DNA of 54,183 nucleotides from a virus, in the IMG/VR virus record IMGVR_UViG_3300048906_000028, positions 1-54,183 of that record, one strand, 5' to 3'. The position numbers were made by a program, and so were the translations under genes. The notes beneath the pieces were generated by a model. The model searched no databases, was not told the origin of the DNA, and saw only the letters and a list, made by a program, of their open reading frames with translations. Below, piece by piece: positions 2,159 through 54,183 of the stretch; positions within the stretch are counted from its first letter, which is position 1; each line of letters starts with the position of its first letter.

Positions 2159-2413
2159 ATGGCAAAGCGCAACATCGAAACCAAGTACTTCATCGGCCGC
2201 ACTGAATCCAAAATCACCCGATCGGTGGACCCCCACCGCGCCGTGGCCAAGTGCGTGCTTAACATGCAACGCAATGAGTACGGCGCGGACTTCGCTGAGG
2301 TCTGGGACCTGGAGACCGGCAAGGTCTACGCCCAGATCAAATTCTTCAAACGGGGTCATATCGACATCATCTACGCCCGCAACCCGCGCCCCGCGCTGCC
2401 CCGCATAGCGTAG
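2159..2413 (+). CDS. Hypothetical protein (84 aa)
   Basis: ORF with an AAGGA ribosome-binding site upstream. No recognisable domain. Confidence 0.65.
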   Translation: MAKRNIETKYFIGRTESKITRSVDPHRAVAKCVLNMQRNEYGADFAEVWDLETGKVYAQIKFFKRGHIDIIYARNPRPALPRIA

Positions 2414-2441
2414 CGCCTTTGCAACGCGCGCACGGGGGTAC

Positions 2442-2470
2442 TTGCAAAGGCGAGTCCCCCGTGTTTTAAT
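2442..2470 (+). promoter_or_regulatory. Class I promoter, TTGCAA-N17-TTTAAT
   Basis: -35 at 2442-2447 and -10 at 2465-2470. Inverted-repeat arms CACGGGGGTACT (2431-2442) and AGTCCCCCGTG (2453-2463). Upstream CCTTTGCAA box at 2416-2424. Confidence 0.6.
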
Positions 2471-2516
2471 AGAGGTTCCGGCGCGCTGCGCCCCCATAGA
2501 GAATAGAGAGAACGCC

Positions 2517-2705
2517 ATGACCAAGACCCAACTCAAGAACAAAGTCGACGCGATTTTCGCCGAGATTGACGTCCACACCGACCTAACCCCCGCGCAGCGC
2601 GCCGCGTACCGCCGCGAGGTGGCCGCCCTCCTGGCCAACGCCCTGGAAGTGGTGCACAACGCCGTCCCGGCCGTCAGCAAAAAATTCCGCAAGACCGCCA
2701 AGTAA
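2517..2705 (+). CDS. Hypothetical protein (62 aa)
   Basis: The internal ATG of ORF 2442..2705 lies just after the ATAGAGAATAGAGAG leader box. Confidence 0.6.
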   Translation: MTKTQLKNKVDAIFAEIDVHTDLTPAQRAAYRREVAALLANALEVVHNAVPAVSKKFRKTAK

Positions 2706-2706
2706 A

Positions 2707-2758
2707 CCATTCTGATGATGGCCAGCGGGGGCTGGCCGAAACGCTCCGGCGTCAATGG
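2707..2758 (+). ncRNA. Hammerhead ribozyme, type I (candidate)
   Basis: CCAUU-CUGAUGA-(U)-GGCCAGC[GGGG]GCUGGCC-GAA-ACGC[UCCG]GCGU-C/AAUGG. All core nucleotides are present. The predicted cut follows C2753 (GUC). Confidence 0.75.
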
Positions 2759-2779
2759 ACCCTAACTTTGGAGAATAGA

Positions 2780-3517
2780 ATGAACAACGCATCCGAGAAA
2801 ATCATCGAGCGCATCCGCCAACTTCTGGCCATGGCCGCCGATGTGTCCTCCCCGCACGAGGCGTCGATTGCCGCAGGCCGCGCCCGCAAGCTGATGGACC
2901 AGCACCAAATCGCGCTGGAGGACATCAAGGACGAATCTACCGGATTCGGTTACGTGAAGGTCGACAAGGCCTACCGCTTCATGCCTAAATGGAAGGACAT
3001 TTTGTGCGTGGCCATCGCCAAGCTGAATGATTGCAAAAGCATCAAAGCGCACGAGTACAAAGTACAGGGCAGTAAGTCCTACGCTTACCGCCTGATGTTC
3101 CAGGGGTTCGAAACTGATGTGGCCCTGGCCGCCCACATGTACAACTACCTGATCGGAACCATTGAGCGGTTGTGCGCCGCCCACATGCGCTCCCTGAACC
3201 TGGGTGCATCGCTTACCAAGGTGTCCGACGCCTACAAGAAGGGCGCGGCCGTGGAAATGTGCGCCAGACTGCGCGCCATTCTGGCCGCCAGGACTGCAGA
3301 GGTCAAGACCTCAACCGGTTCATCGTTGGTTGTATTCAAAATGGCGCAGGTTGAGGCCGAATTCGGCGCGGCCAAATATACCAACACCAAGCTGGTTACG
3401 CGCAAGGACGCACTGACCCTCCAGGCACAGGCCAAGGGCCGCGAGGACGCCAAGAAAATCGGCCTCGATACCCAAATCGGTGATCCTGACCGCGACCCGG
3501 CCGCCCAGGTGGCCTAA
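2780..3517 (+). CDS. DUF2786-like protein (245 aa)
   Basis: The N-terminus KIIERIRQLLAMAADVSSPHEASIAAGRARKLMDQHQI matches the DUF2786 signature from memory. ATG 2780 follows GGAGAATAGA. Confidence 0.65.
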   Translation: MNNASEKIIERIRQLLAMAADVSSPHEASIAAGRARKLMDQHQIALEDIKDESTGFGYVKVDKAYRFMPKWKDILCVAIAKLNDCKSIKAHEYKVQGSKSYAYRLMFQGFETDVALAAHMYNYLIGTIERLCAAHMRSLNLGASLTKVSDAYKKGAAVEMCARLRAILAARTAEVKTSTGSSLVVFKMAQVEAEFGAAKYTNTKLVTRKDALTLQAQAKGREDAKKIGLDTQIGDPDRDPAAQVA

Positions 3518-3539
3518 CCCGTATCAACCCGCGCTCCCC

Positions 3540-3568
3540 TTGCACCGGGGGCGCGGCCGTGTTCTAAT
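3540..3568 (+). promoter_or_regulatory. Class I promoter variant, TTGCAC-N17-TCTAAT
   Basis: Arms CCGCGCTCCCC (3529-3539) and GGGGGCGCGG (3547-3556) form a hairpin. Its 7-nt loop is TTGCACC. CCGTGTTCTAAT follows. Confidence 0.5.
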
Positions 3569-3612
3569 AGCAATATCGCGCTCGGGAGTCGGGTGCGAAC
3601 CCCATAGAGGAT

Positions 3613-3915
3613 ATGATGAAGACCTTAACCTACGCCGCCACCACCTGGGATTCCACCACGGGTGAAGCACACCCGGCCAGTGTGACCATTCTCACGGCCC
3701 CCGGCCCCATCATGATGGAACTGGTGGCCTATACCACCCACGCAGGGCTGTGCATCGAGGCCGATGAAAACCCATCTGATTGGCAGTTGATCGCCGTGCA
3801 CGGTGACTCGCAGGCCTTCGTGTCGGTGTGGAGGCATGTCGACAGCCAGACCCTGTCGACCGAGAATTGCGTACTGATCCCATCCGCCGAGGACATCGGG
3901 TTCAAGAAGTCCTAA
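3613..3915 (+). CDS. Hypothetical protein (100 aa)
   Basis: ORF after the CCCATAGAGGATATG leader, with tandem ATGs at 3613 and 3616. Confidence 0.65.
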   Translation: MMKTLTYAATTWDSTTGEAHPASVTILTAPGPIMMELVAYTTHAGLCIEADENPSDWQLIAVHGDSQAFVSVWRHVDSQTLSTENCVLIPSAEDIGFKKS

Positions 3916-7076: not shown

Positions 7077-7121
7077 TTGTTGTGCCTTTGCAACGCCACG
7101 CGCCCGCGACAAAGGTAATTA

Positions 7122-7150
7122 TTGCAAAGGCGGGCGCGGCGTGTTTTAAT
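7122..7150 (+). promoter_or_regulatory. Class I promoter, TTGCAA-N17-TTTAAT
   Basis: -35 at 7122-7127 and -10 at 7145-7150. Arms 7097-7107 and 7130-7143 are complementary. GTGCCTTTGCAAC box at 7082-7094. Confidence 0.6.
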
Positions 7151-7197
7151 ATAGGTTCGGTAGTTCCGAAGAACCCATAGAGAATAGAGAGAATACC

Positions 7198-7470
7198 ATG
7201 ATCAACGCAAACGGCCAACACACCAACCCTGACTTCAACATCGTCCAGGCCCCAGGCAACTGCAACCCCAAATTCATCGTGATTCGCGGCCAGCGCACCA
7301 ATTCGGGCCACGCCGCTCCAGGCAGCGAGGCAATCTCGGTCCCGATGTCCCGTGACGAGGCAATCACCCACGCCGACCAACTGCAGGCCGACCACGACCG
7401 CAAAGCCGCCCGCCAAGCGGCAGTCAAGAGGATGGCTGCGGGTGTGGCCGGTAAGGCTTTTAACAAGTGA
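7198..7470 (+). CDS. Hypothetical protein (90 aa)
   Basis: ORF after the CCCATAGAGAATAGAGAG leader. Confidence 0.65.
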   Translation: MINANGQHTNPDFNIVQAPGNCNPKFIVIRGQRTNSGHAAPGSEAISVPMSRDEAITHADQLQADHDRKAARQAAVKRMAAGVAGKAFNK

Positions 7471-7523
7471 CCATTCTGACGAGGCCAGCGGGGGCTGGCC
7501 GAAACGCCCAAGGGCGTCAATGG
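7471..7523 (+). ncRNA. Hammerhead ribozyme, type I (candidate), second copy
   Basis: CCAUU-CUGACGA-GGCCAGC[GGGG]GCUGGCC-GAA-ACGCC[CAAG]GGCGU-C/AAUGG. The predicted cut follows C7518. Stem III co-varies with the copy at 2707. Confidence 0.75.
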
Positions 7524-7545
7524 ACCCTAACTTATGGAGAACGCC

Positions 7546-7866
7546 ATGACCCGTACTACCGAAGAACTGAAATTCGCTGCGAGCGCCGCGCTCGACAAGT
7601 GGATTGACAGCAACGATGACGCCGACTTCCAAGCATGGGAAGCCATCATCCGCGAACTGCGCGATACGCTGATGATCACGAACCGCGTGTACGAGGTCGA
7701 CGGCCGCCGCTGGCTGATCGAAACGGCCGTGAACCTGGCCAAGGCCGAAGAGGCTATCGCGATGGCCCGCTGCACAGGCTCCATTGGCGCTACCCTCCAG
7801 GAGACGCGGGATGGCGTCACGCACACCCTGGCGGTGGTGTCGCGCCTGCCAGGGGACGAATCGTGA
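7546..7866 (+). CDS. Hypothetical protein (106 aa)
   Basis: ATG 7546 was chosen by analogy with gene 2780 (same spacing after the ribozyme). ATG 7534 is an alternative. Confidence 0.6.
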   Translation: MTRTTEELKFAASAALDKWIDSNDDADFQAWEAIIRELRDTLMITNRVYEVDGRRWLIETAVNLAKAEEAIAMARCTGSIGATLQETRDGVTHTLAVVSRLPGDES

Positions 7867-11050: not shown

Positions 11051-12068
11051 CTGGCACGCATCCCAGGCCGCGAGCAATCGCAAGCTGGAAGAAAAATTCC
11101 TGGAGCGGGCCGCCAAGGCAGGGGACTTGCGCCCGGGTGGCCACACCCAACGGGTTAACGAAGGCCACGCCCGCCGCCACCGGAAGGTCTGGCAGTTTCA
11201 CCAGGAAGCGGTTGAATGTGCGCGGGGAACCACTCCTGCCAGCGCTACTAGCGTGGATAGGAATAGCGTCAAATATCAGGTTTTGCTCAATGAATTAGCA
11301 ATCATCATTGGCTGTGATGACCGCCGTACCGCCGCCCAAAAAGCTGCCGCTGTGCTTCGGTGGGTCGAACGTAATGCGAAGCCGATATTCACCGCGCCTC
11401 ATCCGGTCGCTGCTGCACCGTCCGATTACATCGGGAAGTTGCGCTCTGCCCTCTACGCGATTGCCTTTACCATGAACGAAGACGAATTGCGCCCAACTGC
11501 TTATGAGGCCTATAAACTTGCCGTTCCGGTCGCTGCTGCACAGGCAGTGCCGACCAAAATTCACAGCGCTTGGGAATCCATGTGCCGCAAGGCTGTTGCA
11601 GTCTTAAATCGGCATATCGTGCCCGATGGCATTTCGGATTTTGCCACACTTAGCGAGCTTTATGGAATCTTCGACAGTGAAGAATATCGCTCCACTAACA
11701 CGATAGAGCAGGACCGATGCGAACAGCGGCAGGCCGAGGCGATGTCAATGGCCCGAATTGTTGATGGCATCGCCTCCCCATCTCCAGCAGCACCAAAAGA
11801 TGCACAAGGGGTGGTGCCGGAATGGTTTAGCGTCAACAATAGCCTGCCGGAAGTCGAAACAGATGTGCTGGTGTTCGGAAAACGTGGCGATGCGATTTGC
11901 TATTCAGTGGCCGGCATCTTCACTGGCGACACGCATGTGCCTCTAGGATCGCTTACGGGCCGTGAATGGCTGGCACAGAACAGCGAAGAAGAATTGCGCT
12001 TTATTGTCTCTCACTGGATGCCCTTGCCCTCCGCCCCGCAGCCAACCGACACCAATAAGGGGGCGTGA
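11028..12068 (+). CDS. Hypothetical protein with a C-terminal DUF551-like domain
   Basis: 346 aa. The C-terminus WFSVNNSLPEVETDVLVFGKRGD...SHWMPLPSAP matches the DUF551 pattern from memory. Confidence 0.65.
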   Translation: MDYQSLVDWHASQAASNRKLEEKFLERAAKAGDLRPGGHTQRVNEGHARRHRKVWQFHQEAVECARGTTPASATSVDRNSVKYQVLLNELAIIIGCDDRRTAAQKAAAVLRWVERNAKPIFTAPHPVAAAPSDYIGKLRSALYAIAFTMNEDELRPTAYEAYKLAVPVAAAQAVPTKIHSAWESMCRKAVAVLNRHIVPDGISDFATLSELYGIFDSEEYRSTNTIEQDRCEQRQAEAMSMARIVDGIASPSPAAPKDAQGVVPEWFSVNNSLPEVETDVLVFGKRGDAICYSVAGIFTGDTHVPLGSLTGREWLAQNSEEELRFIVSHWMPLPSAPQPTDTNKGA

Positions 12069-13622: not shown

Positions 13623-13721
13623 CCCCCGTTCATGTAACAGGCGTAACAGGCCTATATACACGCATATATACACGGAAGAACGCCCGTCCTTACGGGGCTT
13701 CTTGCCCTCTGTGTGGTCTTC

Positions 13722-13985
13722 ATTTACGCGTAAGGGGGACGAACCTGTCGCTGCAGCGACACATTAGCGCCGGAGAGGGGTACACGACTACACACGAAAT
13801 ATTCGACTCCAAAGAACGCCCGTAAGGACGGTACTTCCCTTGAAGCTTGGGCCGTGTATATCGATATACACAAAATAGCCCTCAGACTGTCACACCTACA
13901 CGCGCACTACACAAAATGCAACCCACTCCACCCCTAACGTGTGCTAACGGAGAGGAGGTTGTCAAGGGTGGTAGGCTTTTCGGGC
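13722..13985 (+). repeat. Noncoding paralog A (homologous to 43085..43309)
   Basis: Shared blocks: TTACGCGTA, CGGAG(A)GGGGTACACGACTACACACG, AGAACGCCCGT, GTGTATATYGATATACAC, CTAACGTGTGCT and GTTGTCAAGRGTGGTMGGCTTT. Confidence 0.75.
13854..13871. promoter_or_regulatory. Perfect 18-bp palindrome GTGTATATCGATATACAC (operator- or iteron-like)
   Basis: Read directly. The paralogous copy at 43216..43233 differs only at the centre. Confidence 0.6.
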
Positions 13986-43084: not shown

Positions 43085-43309
43085 GATTACGCGTACGGAC
43101 ACGCGGACAGTCCTAGCGACAAGCGACAATATCCCGGAGGGGGTACACGACTACACACGGCCCACACTCCAGGCCAGAACGCCCGTCCTTGCGGGGCTTC
43201 TTGGTAGTCGAACCCGTGTATATTGATATACACAGAACACTACACGGCTGTCACATCACCTAACGTGTGCTGATCTCTCAGATGTTGTCAAGAGTGGTCG
43301 GCTTTCGGG
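43085..43309 (+). repeat. Noncoding paralog B (homologous to 13722..13985)
   Basis: Carries the same ordered blocks as region A (see feature 13722..13985). Confidence 0.75.
43216..43233. promoter_or_regulatory. Near-palindrome GTGTATATTGATATACAC
   Basis: Paralog of 13854..13871. Only the 2 central bases break the symmetry. Confidence 0.6.
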
Positions 43310-48750: not shown

Positions 48751-50171
48751 AGCAAGCGTACGCTATCTACGGGCCGCCTGGGTGCGGTAAGACCACCAAA
48801 ATCATCCAGATGATCGGAGATTTCGTGGAATTTGGCTACGATATGAACGACATTGCACTGATGTCCCACACCCGCGCCGCCGCCAAAGAGGCGCTGGAGC
48901 GCACTGACCTGGAGCGCTCCGATAAGTTCTCCACGATCCACTCACAAGCCTACCGCATGCTCAATCTGTCGTCCAATCAGTTGGTCGACAATAAACGGCT
49001 GCTTGAATTCTCAAACGTAATCGGCGTGCCCATTAAAAATGGTTCCGTGGACTCGGAAGAGGGTATCGAAGTAGGCGACGAATTCCTCGGTATTCTGAAC
49101 AAGGCCCGTAATCGCCTGGTCGACCCGATGGAAGAATACTACGATTCCGATCGGCCGGGATCGCTGCCGCAGTTCGAAATGTTCATCAAGGGTTACCACG
49201 ACTGGAAACGCGCCAACGGATTCATCGACTTCACTGACATGCTGGAGCGCTTCGTATCCCGCGCCGATTTGATGGACTTCCGCGCCAAGGTCGTTTTCAT
49301 CGACGAGGCGCAAGACCTGTCGGCCCTGCAGTGGCGGGCCATTCGTGTTCTCACTAAGCACGCCGAGCGGGTAGTGGTAGCAGGCGACGACGACCAAGCC
49401 ATTTACGTGTGGGGTGGCGCTGACCCCACCGGCATGGTGCAATTTGAAGAAGAATACAACTCCAAGCGCAAGGTGCTGGAGCAGTCTTACCGAATCCCGT
49501 CCTCGGTGCACGCCGTGGCCAGGGGCATCATCGATCAAGTGTCCTCCCGTGTCGAAAAGGTGTACCATCCTCGCGATGAAGTGGGTAGTGTGACGCGCTA
49601 CGGGTACCTCCACGCGATCGACTTCAAGCACGGCGAAGACACGCTGGCGCTGTGCCGCACTGGCGCGCAGAAGAAAGAGGTCGAGAAGCATTTCATCGAC
49701 CTGGGTATCCCGTACTTGACCGATAACGGCAAGCCGGGCCTGTACCAGACCAAGACGGCCCGAGCCATCCGCGCCCTCAACAAAGCGGCTCGTGGCGAAA
49801 GCATGACCCCGGCCGAGCACGATGTCCTGACCCAAACCGCGCTGCCAAAATTCCGCGACCAGTTCAAGAACCGTAACTACAAGGATGGTATCAAAGCCGG
49901 TCACATGCGGGCGCTGCAGATTCCAGTGTGGGCGTACGACTTCTACCGCGAGGCCAACATGGACGTATCGCCCACCATCCGTCTGTCCTCCATTCACGGT
50001 TCCAAGGGCCGCGAAGCCGACCGCGTGATACTGCATACCGGAATGACTGACCGCACCGCCATGGGTTTTGAAAAGGACCCCGATTCCGAGCATCGCGTGT
50101 TCTATGTCGGGGCCACCCGCGCCCGCCATCGCCTGGACATCCTCGACGGCAACAACGGGTACCCATTGTGA
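48747..50171 (+). CDS. SF1 (UvrD/Rep-like) DNA helicase
   Basis: YGPPGCGKTT, FIDEAQD, VVAGDDDQAIY, QSYR, IHGSKGREAD and YVGATRAR. Confidence 0.8.
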   Translation: MKQAYAIYGPPGCGKTTKIIQMIGDFVEFGYDMNDIALMSHTRAAAKEALERTDLERSDKFSTIHSQAYRMLNLSSNQLVDNKRLLEFSNVIGVPIKNGSVDSEEGIEVGDEFLGILNKARNRLVDPMEEYYDSDRPGSLPQFEMFIKGYHDWKRANGFIDFTDMLERFVSRADLMDFRAKVVFIDEAQDLSALQWRAIRVLTKHAERVVVAGDDDQAIYVWGGADPTGMVQFEEEYNSKRKVLEQSYRIPSSVHAVARGIIDQVSSRVEKVYHPRDEVGSVTRYGYLHAIDFKHGEDTLALCRTGAQKKEVEKHFIDLGIPYLTDNGKPGLYQTKTARAIRALNKAARGESMTPAEHDVLTQTALPKFRDQFKNRNYKDGIKAGHMRALQIPVWAYDFYREANMDVSPTIRLSSIHGSKGREADRVILHTGMTDRTAMGFEKDPDSEHRVFYVGATRARHRLDILDGNNGYPL

Positions 50172-50299
50172 TTGCGCTGGCGCTGGTCATCTACTTATTC
50201 ATTTACGCTATTTTAAGAAAGCCAAGGCCTCCTATGCTATTCATAATAAGCTTCCTCCTGGTTGTAGTGGTCATGCTGGCCCTGGAGCGCCACCAATGA
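50168..50299 (+). CDS. Small two-span hydrophobic peptide (43 aa)
   Basis: GTGA overlap with the helicase stop and ATGA overlap with the polymerase start. Sequence VIALALVIYLFIYAILRKPRPPMLFIISFLLVVVVMLALERHQ. AT-rich codons. Confidence 0.4.
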   Translation: MIALALVIYLFIYAILRKPRPPMLFIISFLLVVVVMLALERHQ

Positions 50300-52146
50300 G
50301 CTTCCCTAAATTCGCACATTTCCCGCACTTTGCGATGGACTTCGAGACCACCGGGTTGGATTGGTGGTCATCAAAGATTTTCGGCGTAGCCCTATCCACC
50401 CCGGATGATAAGGACTACTATTTCGACACCCGTTCAGACTCCGGTGTGATTGAATGGCTGAAAGCTGAAATGCCCAAGGTGCGCGGATTGTGGGTAAACC
50501 ACAACATCAAATTCGATGCACTGTTCGCACTGGCGGCCGGGGTCAATGTCGACCTCAACATGATCGATTGCACGATGATCCGCGCCGCGCTGATTGATGA
50601 ACACCGCCTCACCTACGACCTGGACTCACTCGGCAAGTCCTGCATCGGCGTCGGCAAGGATGATTCCATCTATGGCATTCTGGCGGGCTTGTTCGGTGGC
50701 GCAGCCACCAAGAATGCACAGATGCCGAACCTGCACCGGGCACCGAAAGCGATAGCGGGTAAGTACGCAAAGCAAGATACTCGAACGGCATTGAAGTTAT
50801 GGCAGTGGCAGGAGCGCGAGATTGAAGAGCAAAGCTTGCGCCGAGTAGCTGAGCTTGAGCGGCAGTTGATCCCGGTAATCGTGCGCATCGAGCGCGGCGG
50901 CGTGCGCGTGGACCTGGAGGCGTCCGAGAAGGCCGCCAAAGCCATCGATAAGATGGTCGGGGCCACGCAGAAGGAACTGAACACCATCGCAGGTTTCGAG
51001 GTCAACCCGAACCCATCCAGTTCTATCCATAAGTTGTTCGACCCCAAGAAAAACGCAGAGGGTTTATGGGTTCTGAATGACGGCACGATTGCCGAGGCTA
51101 CCGAAGCGGGCAAGGCCTCAATCTCGGCCGACTGCCTGCGCTCGATGAAGCATCCAGCCGCCCCGTTGATTTTGAAACTGCGGAAAGCCATCAAGACCCG
51201 CGACACTTTCATCCGTGGCCATATCCTATCCTACCACAACAACGGCATGATTCACGCCAACTACAATCAGGCAAAATCGGAGAATGACCGTGGAACCGGT
51301 ACCGGCCGCCTGTCAGTGAATTCACCAGCACTGCAGCAGATTCCGGCCAGGGATAAGGATATCGCGGAGGTTGTGCGTGCGCTGTTCATGCCTGATGAAG
51401 GCCAGGATTGGGGCTGTTGGGATTGGGCGCAGATGGACTTCCGGATGATGGCCCACTACGTCAACAACCCGGTGATCAACAAGGCATATGCAGACGACCC
51501 GGCCGTGGACTTCCACAAGCTGGCTGCCAACCTTACCGGCCTGCCACGCTCGCCGCGATTCGCGGGGGATGCCAATGCCAAGCAAATTAACCTGGGATTG
51601 GTGTTCGGAATGGGTATGGGGACGCTGGCTTGGGAAATGGGTTTGCCGTTCACCATTGAGAAGTACCGGTCTCGCGGCGTCGACAAGGTGTGGAAGAAGC
51701 CTGGCCCCGAGGCCGAGGCGGTTTTCGAAAACTACCACTCCAACATCCCCGGCATACAGTCAATGCTGTCGAAAGCATCAGCGCTAGCCAAGGATCGGGG
51801 CTACGTGCTGACCATCATGGGGCGGCGCATCCGGTTCCCTGGCGGCCGTGCCACCCACAAGGCTGGCGGCCTGATTTTCCAGGGTTCGGCGGCCGATGCC
51901 CTTAAACAAAAGTTGATTGAGGTGGACCGCGAGGTGCGCGGAACCGATGCACGAATCCTGATGAACGTGCACGATGAATTCGATTTGTCGGTACCCCCTA
52001 CCATCAACGGTAACCGGCCGCCGATTCTCGATCGAATCTCCGAAATCATCACAACCTTTGATGGTGTCAGTACTCCCATTAAATTCCGCGTCCCGATCCG
52101 CTGTGATCAACAGACCGGCCCCAACTGGTGGATAGCCTCGAAATGA
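50296..52146 (+). CDS. Family-A DNA polymerase with a 3'-5' exonuclease domain; DpoZ candidate
   Basis: DFETTGL, NHNIKFD and YAKQDT (Exo I-III). DWAQMDFRMMAH (motif A), AKQINLGLVFGMG (motif B) and NVHDE (motif C). ATG 50296 was chosen over the 5' extension. Confidence 0.85.
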   Translation: MSFPKFAHFPHFAMDFETTGLDWWSSKIFGVALSTPDDKDYYFDTRSDSGVIEWLKAEMPKVRGLWVNHNIKFDALFALAAGVNVDLNMIDCTMIRAALIDEHRLTYDLDSLGKSCIGVGKDDSIYGILAGLFGGAATKNAQMPNLHRAPKAIAGKYAKQDTRTALKLWQWQEREIEEQSLRRVAELERQLIPVIVRIERGGVRVDLEASEKAAKAIDKMVGATQKELNTIAGFEVNPNPSSSIHKLFDPKKNAEGLWVLNDGTIAEATEAGKASISADCLRSMKHPAAPLILKLRKAIKTRDTFIRGHILSYHNNGMIHANYNQAKSENDRGTGTGRLSVNSPALQQIPARDKDIAEVVRALFMPDEGQDWGCWDWAQMDFRMMAHYVNNPVINKAYADDPAVDFHKLAANLTGLPRSPRFAGDANAKQINLGLVFGMGMGTLAWEMGLPFTIEKYRSRGVDKVWKKPGPEAEAVFENYHSNIPGIQSMLSKASALAKDRGYVLTIMGRRIRFPGGRATHKAGGLIFQGSAADALKQKLIEVDREVRGTDARILMNVHDEFDLSVPPTINGNRPPILDRISEIITTFDGVSTPIKFRVPIRCDQQTGPNWWIASK

Positions 52147-52403
52147 TACCTAAACGAATTCAAAACGCCACCCGGGTCCTGGGCGCTCCGGCCGACTGGA
52201 AGGATGAAGGCGGCCCCTGCGCGGGCATCCCAGTGGCCGATGTGTCAACCCCCGAAGGCCCCTTCATGGTGTCAGCATGGGAAATGACCCCGGCCGAGGT
52301 CCAGGCCGTAATCAACGGGGCTAGTGTCCGCTTGTGGATTCGCGGCATTTCCCATCCGGTGGTTGTCCTGGACGTATCACCGGTCGACAACTCTGCTACT
52401 TGA
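52143..52403 (+). CDS. Hypothetical protein (86 aa)
   Basis: ATG 52143 overlaps the polymerase stop (ATGA). Confidence 0.6.
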   Translation: MIPKRIQNATRVLGAPADWKDEGGPCAGIPVADVSTPEGPFMVSAWEMTPAEVQAVINGASVRLWIRGISHPVVVLDVSPVDNSAT

Positions 52404-52419
52404 GGCACCACAACGCCCG

Positions 52420-52448
52420 TTGACCGGTGGAAACCGGTATGGTATCAT
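52420..52448 (+). promoter_or_regulatory. Class II promoter, TTGACC-N17-TATCAT with a TGG extension
   Basis: TTGACCGGTGGAAACCGGTATGGTATCAT is a near-copy of 43330..43359. Confidence 0.6.
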
Positions 52449-52488
52449 AACGGGGGTCGATCCAGACCCCGATAGCGAAGAGAGAGAA

Positions 52489-52740
52489 ATGAATACTAAA
52501 GCTAATGAAATGAGCGTCGTCACCGGCCGGTCTCGCGAGCCGATCATGGGCTACAAAGCCACCCCGTTAAAGCGGGTTGTGGCCAACGTCATCCTGGCCC
52601 TCGGTGACATGTACGGCGGTCGTGCCCTGCGCCACCTGCCGGTGCACATCATGAATCCAGTTACCAAAAGCACCATCCGCACCGAAGGCCTGGTAAAGGC
52701 CGAAGGGTATAATAAAGTTTTCACCAAAATCAAGGAATAA
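52489..52740 (+). CDS. Hypothetical protein (83 aa)
   Basis: Internal ATG after the GATAGCGAAGAGAGAG leader. Confidence 0.6.
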   Translation: MNTKANEMSVVTGRSREPIMGYKATPLKRVVANVILALGDMYGGRALRHLPVHIMNPVTKSTIRTEGLVKAEGYNKVFTKIKE

Positions 52741-52744
52741 TGTA

Positions 52745-53854
52745 ATGATCAACAAGCGCCAAATTTTCATGGTGGTAGACCTGCAGTTCGGCTCAACCGG
52801 CAAAGGCCTGATAGCGGGCCTCCTGGCCGAGAATCATCAACCCGATACCGTGGTGACCGCCTGGGCCGCCAATGCTGGTCACACCTACATCAACGCTGAT
52901 GGCCGCAAATTCGTCCACACGATGCTGGCCAATGGCGTGGTGTCGAAGAACCTCAAGCGCGTTCTTCTCGGCCCGGGTTCTTTGATCAACCCTGATGCCC
53001 TGGCCGCCGAAATTGAATCGTGCGCCGACCTGCTCCAGAACGCCGTCATCATGATCCACCCGCATGCCGCCATCATCACTCAAAAGCATATCGATGAAGA
53101 AGCCGGGCCGATGACCAAGATCGGTTCGACCAAGAAGGGCGTCGGCGCGGCAATGATCGAGCGCATTCGCCGCAATCCTGACGAGAACAATATCGCGGCC
53201 AATGCCCTGGACGGCCACCCGATGGGCCGTCATGTCGTCACGATCGAAGCCTACAACGCCGCCCTAGACGAGTCCAAGGTCATGCTGGTAGAAGGTGCAC
53301 AGGGCTACAGCCTGTCGATGTACCACGGCATGTACCCCTACACCACCTCCCGCGATGTGACCCCGGCCCAAATTTTCGCCGATTGCGCGATTCCGCTGTC
53401 CTGGTACCCGTCGACCGAAGTCATCGGAACCGCCCGCACCTTCCCCATCCGCGTGGCCAATCGCTTCGATTCGAATGGCGTCCAGGTGGGTTATTCGGGC
53501 GGCCATTACCCAGACCAGGAAGAAATTAGCTTCGAAAGCCTGGGTATGCCGGTGGAACTGACGACCGTTACCAAGCTGCCGCGCCGCATCTTCACCCTGT
53601 CCAAAATCCAGCTGCGCGAAGCTTTACGTCAGTGTTCGGTGGACTCGCTGTTCCTGAATTTCGCCAATTACCTGCGGACGGAAGACGAATTGCGCGAGAC
53701 CCTGACCACCGTGCAGGATGCCCTGATCGAATCGGGCGCCACCTCCGGTCTTTGCTGGATCGGCTTCGGCCCCACCGTCAATGATGTGCTGGAAATCACC
53801 CCCGGCACCTCCGTCGAAGTAGTGTTGGCCGCCTGGCATAAATCCCGGGGCTGA
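52745..53854 (+). CDS. purZ: Adenylosuccinate synthetase (PurA) homolog with PurZ features (N6-succino-2-amino-2'-deoxyadenylate synthase candidate)
   Basis: 369 aa. QFGSTGKG (PurA QWGDEGKG, Asp to Ser), ANAGHT, IGSTKKGVG, VEGAQGYSL...YPYTTS and TTVTKLPRR align to PurA motifs. Shorter than PurA. Clustered with MazG-like, HD and PolA genes. Confidence 0.8.
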   Translation: MINKRQIFMVVDLQFGSTGKGLIAGLLAENHQPDTVVTAWAANAGHTYINADGRKFVHTMLANGVVSKNLKRVLLGPGSLINPDALAAEIESCADLLQNAVIMIHPHAAIITQKHIDEEAGPMTKIGSTKKGVGAAMIERIRRNPDENNIAANALDGHPMGRHVVTIEAYNAALDESKVMLVEGAQGYSLSMYHGMYPYTTSRDVTPAQIFADCAIPLSWYPSTEVIGTARTFPIRVANRFDSNGVQVGYSGGHYPDQEEISFESLGMPVELTTVTKLPRRIFTLSKIQLREALRQCSVDSLFLNFANYLRTEDELRETLTTVQDALIESGATSGLCWIGFGPTVNDVLEITPGTSVEVVLAAWHKSRG

Positions 53855-53874
53855 CAGACCGCCTCCCGATATGG

Positions 53875-53902
53875 CTCCGGCCGCACGGGAGGTACTTTCC
53901 TT
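53875..53902 (-). repeat. GTACC box copy, inverted orientation
   Basis: ctccggccgcacgggaggtactttcctt is the reverse complement of AAGGAAAGTACCTCCCGTGCGGCCGGAG. It lies between purZ and the MazG-like gene. Confidence 0.7.
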
Positions 53903-53926
53903 ACATTCGAGACTATCAACCGCTAT

Positions 53927-54183
53927 ATGAGCATCGACCAACGAAGCGAAGCCCGCGAAGACGTTAAATCCGTAACCCTCGCACGCCTGCAGTCCCTGGT
54001 GTTCGGCCAGGCCAACGTGCTTTTCCCGAAACGCACCCAGTCCAAAGCCTTTCTCAAGCTGTACGAGGAACTGGGCGAAGTGATCAAGAACCCGTCCGAC
54101 CCCCTGGAATGGGCAGACGTTTTTATCATGCTGCTGGACCTGTCGAAGATGAACAACATCGATGTGGTGTCCGCGATCCTGCA
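53927..54183 (+). CDS. mazZ: MazG-like NTP pyrophosphohydrolase, 5' part (continues at nt 128 of the window after removal of the 127-bp overlap; ends at 278)
   Basis: ATG 53927. The frame is open to the contig end and in phase with ORF 24..278. Confidence 0.7.
   Translation, partial: MSIDQRSEAREDVKSVTLARLQSLVFGQANVLFPKRTQSKAFLKLYEELGEVIKNPSDPLEWADVFIMLLDLSKMNNIDVVSAIL
54057..54183. repeat. Terminal overlap, copy 2
   Basis: Identical to 1..127. Confidence 0.9.

Follow-up and report, generated by a model that had tools for sequence, protein, structure and literature searches.

A predicted type I hammerhead ribozyme present in two copies between early genes of a metagenomic phage

Introduction

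Clusters of hammerhead ribozymes flanking single genes have been described in prophages, and for some of these ribozymes cleavage has been demonstrated both in vitro and in E. coli (Perreault et al. 2011, PMC3088659). Pseudoknots of the kind described below are documented there in all three hammerhead types, and mutation shows that they are needed for fast cleavage. The biological role of bacterial and phage hammerheads is still described as unsettled (PMC6765202; PMC6155905). In this study we analysed a 54,183-nt stretch of viral DNA (IMG/VR record IMGVR_UViG_3300048906_000028, positions 1 to 54,183; hereafter the window), in which an earlier reading of the letters alone, made without database searches (the sequence-only reading), had proposed a type I hammerhead between two early genes. 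As judged from sequence comparison, the candidate is a genuine type I hammerhead of a known kind, present in two copies in a phage genome.

The first of these copies has one base more than the strict consensus, inserted between A9 and G10.1. In the acceptance filter of Perreault et al., changes in the core and mispairs at 10.1-11.1 were grounds for rejection, and a form with an extra U was not found discussed in the passages of that article consulted (PMC3088659). A natural extra base is known at the same position from the (+) hammerhead of chrysanthemum chlorotic mottle viroid (CChMVd); it is an A, which causes a moderate loss of activity (PMC3705267, citing De la Pena and Flores 2001). With U in place of this A, trans-cleavage is 3-4 fold faster, and C or G is harmful (PMC3705267).

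Results

Sequence and predicted structure of the two copies

Hammerhead 1 (2707-2758, + strand) was recognised by reading of the sequence, by a descriptor match, by the family model R2 and by its predicted fold. Its stem I is formed by CCAUU (2707-2711) and AAUGG (2754-2758). CCAUU is followed by the core C3-A9 (CUGAUGA, 2712-2718), by the extra base (U2719, between A9 and G10.1) and by stem II, in which GGCCAGC (2720-2726) pairs with GCUGGCC (2731-2737) around the loop GGGG (2727-2730). G12 A13 A14 are GAA (2738-2740), stem III pairs ACGC (2741-2744) with GCGU (2749-2752) around the loop UCCG, and C17 is C2753, so that cleavage is predicted at C2753/A2754. The letters of the window agreed base for base with the description given in the sequence-only reading, and the cleavage site predicted there holds on the sequence as read. 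The predicted fold of the region was the hammerhead three-way junction.

Hammerhead 2 (7471-7523, + strand) is a type I hammerhead with a canonical core, found by the descriptor and by model R2. It is a paralog lying 4.8 kb from hammerhead 1 and reads, in order, CCAUU, CUGACGA, stem II with loop (GGCCAGC, GGGG, GCUGGCC) with no inserted base before it, GAA, stem III with loop (ACGCC, CAAG, GGCGU), C and AAUGG; cleavage is predicted at C7518/A7519. The only differences between the two copies are N7 (U to C), the extra U and, in stem III, the length and the loop; none of these is constrained in a hammerhead. The conservation between them spans the interval from the stop codon to the ribosome-binding site (ACCCUAACUU.UGGAGAA). 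In both copies the invariant core was confirmed to be complete (C3 U4 G5 A6 N7 G8 A9, G12 A13 A14, A15.1-U16.1 and an H17 that is not G), and the type I topology (an open stem I, with loops capping stems II and III) followed from both sequences and from the predicted fold. No further copies were found in the window by either of two family models with filters off.

Chance expectation and model scores

Our own type I descriptor consisted of CUGANGA, at most one inserted base, stem II, GAA, stem III, H17 and stem I, and was applied to both strands. With stems of at least 5/5/4 pairs, 0.003 matches were expected per dinucleotide-shuffled window (300 shuffles, both strands), and with stems of 3/3/3 pairs the expectation was 0.12 per shuffled window (300 shuffles). 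The real window gave two matches, the site at 2707-2758 and that at 7471-7523, which is far above the chance expectation of 0.003.

Model R2 was built from 49 sequences of other viral contigs (alignment A2) with the nested hammerhead structure and contained no rows from the window. With filters off, it matched the window at exactly two places, 2704-2775 (hammerhead 1, 53.8 bits, E about 9e-13) and 7468-7540 (hammerhead 2, 50.8 bits, E about 7e-12), these E-values being rough since a shortened calibration was used.

No family of Rfam reached its gathering score anywhere in the window. Searches of related loci with the same library likewise gave no hammerhead match on L001, an AT-rich viral contig with four copies, on positions 2000-2700 of L005 (three copies, two with a canonical core), or on 14 loci of 121 kb in total with at least 30 copies by the family model.

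Relatives and covariation of the stems

A pattern holding only the stem I of the window copies and the core led to the contig L001, in which each of the four copies has a stop codon before it and an AGGAGG ribosome-binding site after it and carries the extra U. Scans of genomes and metagenomes with the window stem I returned only AT-rich marine relatives of L001 and chance matches. A core-only pattern (the core with the extra U, the two pairs that close stem II, two stem III pairs, and GUC-A) matched viral loci numbering at least 119. In 110 of the 122 matches listed, each of the three stems reached 4 bp or more, the pattern itself enforcing only 1, 2 and 2 pairs. Over these loci the descriptor gave 117 distinct type I hammerheads, often 2-4 per locus.

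Covariation was assessed on alignment A3, which held 144 R2 matches with 122 distinct rows. On the 122 distinct sequences, pairing reached 98.9% in stem I, 96.0% in stem II and 97.5% in stem III, with double changes at 15 of the 17 stem pairs. The covariation score was 0.61, compared with 0.13 for shuffled columns and 0.05-0.09 when the partners were slid by 1-3 columns, and the observed score was reached in none of 500 shuffles. Alignment A1 gave the same picture, and the invariant core bases were kept in more than 100 relatives. The assignment to type I made in the sequence-only reading is therefore upheld by a model free of window sequences (53.8 bits) and by the covariation of stems I-III in the 122 distinct relatives.

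Some members showed other junctions between A9 and stem II (L072 4198-4274, L062 6427-6503, L071 1-68, L053 2211-2289 and L062 3748-3823), for example CUGACGA-GA-GCCGG and CUGAUGA-GCC-GCUGG; longer insertions or a shifted stem II may occur in these sequences. One viral contig with two family hammerheads (L036) also carried, at 11640-11764, a Betaproteobacteria-1 RNA (RF02932, 97 bits).

The pseudoknot between loop II and the 3' tail

In the larger subclass of the family, stem II has 5-7 bp, and loop II, of the form nUGGnnA, pairs with a tail directly after stem I, AAnnCCA. Loop and tail were found in matched variants (UGGAU/AUCCA, UGGUU/AACCA, CGGGC/GCCCG, UAGCU/AGCUA and AGGAC/GUCCU). Double changes occurred at 5 of 5 pseudoknot pairs, and these were paired in 86.6% on A1 and in 79.2% on A3; the model behind A3 had no pseudoknot, so A3 could not have fitted this pairing. 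The window copies keep four of the five family pairs in the family register. In hammerhead 1, the 3' tail CCCU (2760-2763) is the partner of loop II in alignment A1, with the pairs G2727-U2763 (a wobble), G2728-C2762, G2729-C2761 and G2730-C2760, and in hammerhead 2 CCCU (7525-7528) pairs with the loop GGGG (7490-7493). The tertiary contact predicted to align stems I and II is thus the pseudoknot between loop II and the 3' tail.

This pseudoknot was overlooked in the sequence-only reading, and the pairing proposed there, a distal extension of stem I into the ribosome-binding site (CCAAG 2698-2702 with CUUUGG 2766-2771), was rejected. The extension can be drawn but has no comparative support: the mean longest helix at this place in the family was 4.16, compared with 4.15 in cross-paired controls, and it was also absent from the predicted fold of hammerhead 2.

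A second subclass (L004, L007, L009, L011, L036, L087 and others) has a 4-bp stem II, a loop of the yUAAU type and a 6-bp stem I. No in-register pseudoknot is present in it, and its members must therefore use a different tertiary contact.

The extra U between A9 and G10.1

For the survey of this position, otherwise identical patterns were run over IMG/VR, and a locus was counted only when all three stems had at least 4 bp. Structurally valid hammerheads with U between A9 and G10.1 were found at at least 115 loci, those with no base there at 50, those with A at 2 and those with C at none; an extra G is indistinguishable from a stem II beginning with GGG. This ranking of natural frequencies in viral contigs parallels the in vitro ranking known for CChMVd (+). 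Since U is the commonest form and the CChMVd data agree with it, the extra U is, on these counts, to be regarded as the usual form in the group and not as a defect. The sequence-only reading had held that single insertions at this place occur in some natural hammerheads, and the tolerance of the extra U was borne out both by the predominance of the U form and by CChMVd (+), which tolerates U best (PMC3705267).

Genes and promoter-like units around the hammerheads

All genes of the hammerhead region are on the + strand, and both hammerheads lie on the coding strand, each between two open reading frames (ORFs) of that strand, in a gap of 74-75 nt and 16-17 nt upstream of the ribosome-binding site of the next gene. 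Hammerhead 1 is preceded by an ORF of 62 aa without a Pfam match (2517-2705), whose UAA stop (2703-2705) ends 1 nt before stem I, and is followed by the ribosome-binding site GGAG (2770-2773) and a DUF2786/DUF7168 gene (ATG at 2780; 2780-3517). Upstream of hammerhead 2 is a 90-aa ORF (7198-7470) with a UGA stop abutting stem I, and downstream are GGAG (7536-7539) and a 106-aa ORF that begins with ATG 7546 and ends at 7866. No homology was detected between the flanking ORFs of the two copies, neither for the upstream nor for the downstream pair. The module of ribozyme and ribosome-binding site is conserved between the copies, their flanking ORFs being unrelated.

The same layout was common in the family, in which related loci have 2-4 copies between small genes. 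In 95 of the 117 members, the ribozyme began between -11 and +6 nt from the stop of an ORF of at least 40 codons, mostly between -3 and +1 nt. A ribosome-binding site and start codon were found within 70 nt after the cleavage site in 97 of 117, mostly at 10-30 nt, compared with 26% of random 70-mers. The suggestion of the sequence-only reading that cleavage would separate the 62-aa ORF from the DUF2786 gene is in keeping with this layout and with the view of Perreault et al. (PMC3088659).

Both hammerhead units begin with a promoter-like repeat, which occurs three times (1747-1802, 2427-2482 and 7107-7162; repeat families D3 and D5, alignment A4) and consists of TTGCAAAGG, a spacer and GTGTTTTAATAGAGGTTC. 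It can be read as a -35 box TTGCAA, a 17-nt spacer with TG, and a -10 box TTTAAT; in the unit of hammerhead 1 these are at 2442-2447, 2462-2463 and 2465-2470. On the + strand, the repeat with its leader extends over 2427-2516, up to ATG 2517, before the hammerhead 1 unit and over 7107-7197 before the hammerhead 2 unit. From these boxes we infer that the repeat is a putative promoter; its sites were not listed by a simple promoter scan. Two of the three promoter-led units have the order promoter, leader, small ORF, hammerhead, ribosome-binding site and next gene. In the third unit (1747) the small ORF ends in an intrinsic terminator (2111-2128) and there is no ribozyme. A terminator in the place of the ribozyme suggests that both devices define the 3' end of the message of the small ORF.

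Further features were observed in these units. An inverted repeat around the -35 box changes in a compensatory manner between copies (ACGGGGG/CCCCCGU and ACGCGG/CCGCGU), and further TTGCAA boxes are found a short way upstream, near 1729 and 2419; these inverted repeats and boxes may represent operators or an RNA hairpin. Before the first ORF of each unit there is a conserved leader, CCCAUAGAGAAUAGAGAGAAyrCCAUG, at 1813-1844, 2493-2524 and 7174-7205 and, in a weaker form, at 3601-3632. It shares GAGAAUAGA with the leader that would remain after cleavage of hammerhead 1.

The phage genome and the distribution of the family

The ends of the window, 1-127 and 54057-54183, are identical over 127 nt, which indicates a complete phage genome of about 54,056 bp that is circularly permuted or terminally redundant. 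The window corresponds to the JGI metagenome contig Ga0496102_0000368 (3300048905), and a near-identical contig was also present in a Logan assembly. Genes were found for a DNA polymerase of family A (50068-52146), an adenylosuccinate synthetase resembling PurZ (52745-53854) and an HD-domain YfbR-like hydrolase (459-1007), and a dATP/dGTP pyrophosphohydrolase-like gene (PF04447) spans the 54183/1 junction. The best matches of PurZ were Salmonella phage PMBT28 (53% identity) and Vibrio phage phiVC8 (49%). Judging by its predicted products, the cluster 50068-54183 plus 1-1007 is the set of genes known from phages in whose DNA 2-aminoadenine (Z) takes the place of adenine, and the phage appears to make Z-DNA.

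When 2400-3600 was compared with GenBank phages by BLAST, the sole match was 118 nt long and lay within the DUF2786 gene; the DUF2786 protein had no match in IMG/VR. Model R2 found no hammerhead in PMBT28 or in the scanned parts of PSA28 and Kokobel2, which all carry PurZ homologues, and the presence of the ribozyme is therefore patchy. Family members with scores of 44-72 bits were found in three cultured phages, and no ribozyme was annotated in any of the three records. In Faecalibacterium phage FP_Brigit, the ribozyme (52971-53045; L201 1501-1575) overlaps only the stop codon of the preceding coding sequence; Salisaeta phage SSIP-1 has two intergenic copies flanking ORF 17 (L202 1075-1154 and 1498-1575); and in Flavonifractor phage Castelnaud (L203 1213-1291) a predicted coding sequence on the opposite strand covers the whole site.

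Two other repeats were seen in the window. A 60-nt repeat ending in AAGGAAAGUACCUCCCGUGCGGC is present in three copies spread over the genome (10726-10785, 18861-18920 and 42960-43019) with 60-75% identity, and may represent another class of regulatory or promoter element. A repeated hairpin, AGAACGCCCGUCCUUACGGGGCUUCUUG, which looks like a terminator, occurs at 13676-13704, 13812-13837 and 43175-43203, with 96% identity between the copies starting at 13677 and 43176.

Discussion

Based on the results of this study, both elements are very probably active type I hammerheads within early phage messages, and their most likely role, as far as the sequence allows it to be judged, is the cutting of early phage transcripts into separate messages. 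In the mechanism that we propose, stems I-III would fold and the 4-bp pseudoknot (loop II GGGG with the CCCU after stem I) would align stems I and II, upon which the RNA would cleave itself after C2753 in copy 1 or after C7518 in copy 2. As a consequence of the type I topology, the whole ribozyme would stay on the upstream fragment, so that the upstream message would terminate, 48 nt after its stop codon, in a structured 3' end bearing a 2',3'-cyclic phosphate. Melting of the 5-bp stem I and of the pseudoknot would then free the downstream message, which would carry a 5'-OH and 26-27 nt of leader; the DUF2786 message would begin at A2754 with a 26-nt leader. The predicted fold of this 3' product of hammerhead 1 was not unusually stable (z = 0.33), and GGAG and AUG were unpaired in it except for G2771. 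One transcript would in this way give two messages, whose stability and translation would be uncoupled, and the message of the small ORF would gain a defined, structured 3' end while transcription runs on into the next genes. The motif, its family membership, the covariation of four helices and the genomic layout are established by the analysis; cleavage in vivo, the promoter assignment, and the effects on stability and translation are the putative parts of this scheme.

Several observations weigh against the interpretation as active hammerheads. The fold energy of neither copy was significant compared with shuffled sequences (z = -0.75 for hammerhead 1 and -1.06 for hammerhead 2), and thermodynamics alone would not flag hammerhead 1; this result carries no weight in either direction. 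The two copies are paralogs and hence do not constitute independent evidence, and the searches described above gave no close relative of this phage in which conservation of the two positions would be visible. With E up to 10, Rfam gave no hammerhead model in 2650-2820 (171 nt) or 7420-7580 (161 nt). The sequence-only reading had looked to an Rfam hammerhead match as its check, and the lack of one proved uninformative, since the same models also missed every relative tested; the negative result thus reflects a gap in the sensitivity of the library and is not evidence against the motif. In addition, the pseudoknot of the window copies has 4 bp and takes up the entire GGGG loop, the norm of the family being 5 bp in a 7-nt loop. 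With the entire loop engaged, the closing pair C2726-G2731 of stem II probably opens, in our view.

Other explanations of the two elements were considered as well. The idea that the cassette of ribozyme and ribosome-binding site is a selfish or freely exchanged module, which spreads by recombination and cleaves with no specific regulatory benefit, seems improbable to us, even though some facts would fit it. The window copies are near-identical while every flanking ORF is unrelated, the family is found in unrelated phages of very different guanine-cytosine content and hosts, no copy is present in the scanned parts of the nearest cultured phages that encode PurZ (PMBT28, PSA28 and Kokobel2), and self-cleaving ribozymes have been linked with selfish elements in the published view (PMC3088659). 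However, the stop codon of an ORF on the same strand lies directly before the ribozyme in 95 of 117 members, and a ribosome-binding site and start codon follow it in 97 of 117. Moreover, the two copies of the window are found in equivalent places, each behind the first ORF of a promoter-led unit, and neither terminal repeats nor other indications of mobility were seen near them.

It could also be supposed that the elements are inactive, hammerhead-like relics, with copy 1 disabled by its extra U, which would act only as a stable group of intergenic hairpins, blocking 3' exonucleases for instance, or serving as a spacer. The one inserted base by which hammerhead 1 departs from the strict consensus and the lack of an Rfam match would agree with a relic, but we consider it very improbable, given that the extra-U form is the majority form (at least 115 structurally valid loci against 50 without insertion), that a U at this place is compatible with high activity in another hammerhead (PMC3705267), and that the core of hammerhead 2 is perfect. 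The invariant core is also kept in both copies and in more than 100 relatives, which a plain hairpin would not need. The least credible explanation, to which we give practically no weight, is that the hairpin of stem II is an intrinsic terminator ending the 62-aa ORF. The hairpin is indeed a strong, GC-rich one of 7 bp (2720-2737), 15 nt after the stop codon; yet it is followed by GAAACGC and not directly by a U run, by which a terminator at stem II was ruled out. The terminator scan listed 2111-2128 and nothing at 2720-2737 or 7483-7500, and the flanking core is conserved far beyond what a terminator needs.

The reading as active hammerheads that divide early transcripts may be carried further, into a bolder proposal that we regard as unlikely. 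Type I hammerheads with an extra U and a pseudoknot would then be a distinct and very widespread phage subfamily missed by Rfam-based annotation, serving as a portable cassette that separates genes and is made up of stop codon, ribozyme and ribosome-binding site, in which cleavage is coupled to, or gated by, translation of the upstream small ORF. As the stop codon abuts stem I (mostly -3 to +1 nt), a ribosome terminating there would have to unfold the ribozyme. If this were true, translation-gated cleavage would set the relative dosage of early phage proteins.

Intergenic hammerheads of phages are already well known, and the two copies add members to a known kind. Nevertheless, a reading of the raw sequence appears to have picked out a real catalytic RNA, and two ribozymes not annotated before are added to a metagenomic phage. 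The results also point to a gap in Rfam-based annotation, as more than 100 viral loci have this hammerhead form and those tested gave no match. The preference for U at the insertion site in nature agrees with the earlier in vitro data, and the modular arrangement of promoter, small ORF and ribozyme was found in a phage apparently with a Z-DNA genome. Given the constant order of stop codon, ribozyme and ribosome-binding site, and with cultured hosts available, it can be tested directly whether the ribozymes uncouple the stability or translation of neighbouring genes.

Among the known systems, the extended type I hammerhead of the Schistosoma type has the type I topology and the catalytic core of the window copies, and its tertiary contact is made by loop II with a bulge in a long stem I. 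In the window copies, by contrast, stem I is no longer than 5 bp and the partner of loop II is the single-stranded tail that follows stem I. A pseudoknot hammerhead with a solved crystal structure (PMC11300833), in which a pseudoknot helix holds the active fold, is alike in principle only. The CChMVd (+) hammerhead (PMC3705267) has one extra base at the same position of the core, with U the most active and C and G harmful. It differs in being of type III, in belonging to a circular RNA replicon in which it processes rolling-circle multimers, in having a loop-loop tertiary contact instead of a pseudoknot, and in its natural base, which is A and not U.

A further known system is that of the clustered hammerheads of types I, II and III in prophage and phage genomes (Perreault et al. 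2011, PMC3088659). Unlike their core consensus, copy 1 and most of the present group carry the extra U, which under their filter would count as a departure of the core or as a 10.1-11.1 mispair, and the group is set apart also by the absence of Rfam matches in the tests that were run. The window has two coding-strand copies in one genome, each between + ORFs, and the published clusters likewise have several copies per genome, occupy the same intergenic position between small non-conserved phage genes, and have been given the same proposed role, the processing of long phage transcripts into single-gene messages.

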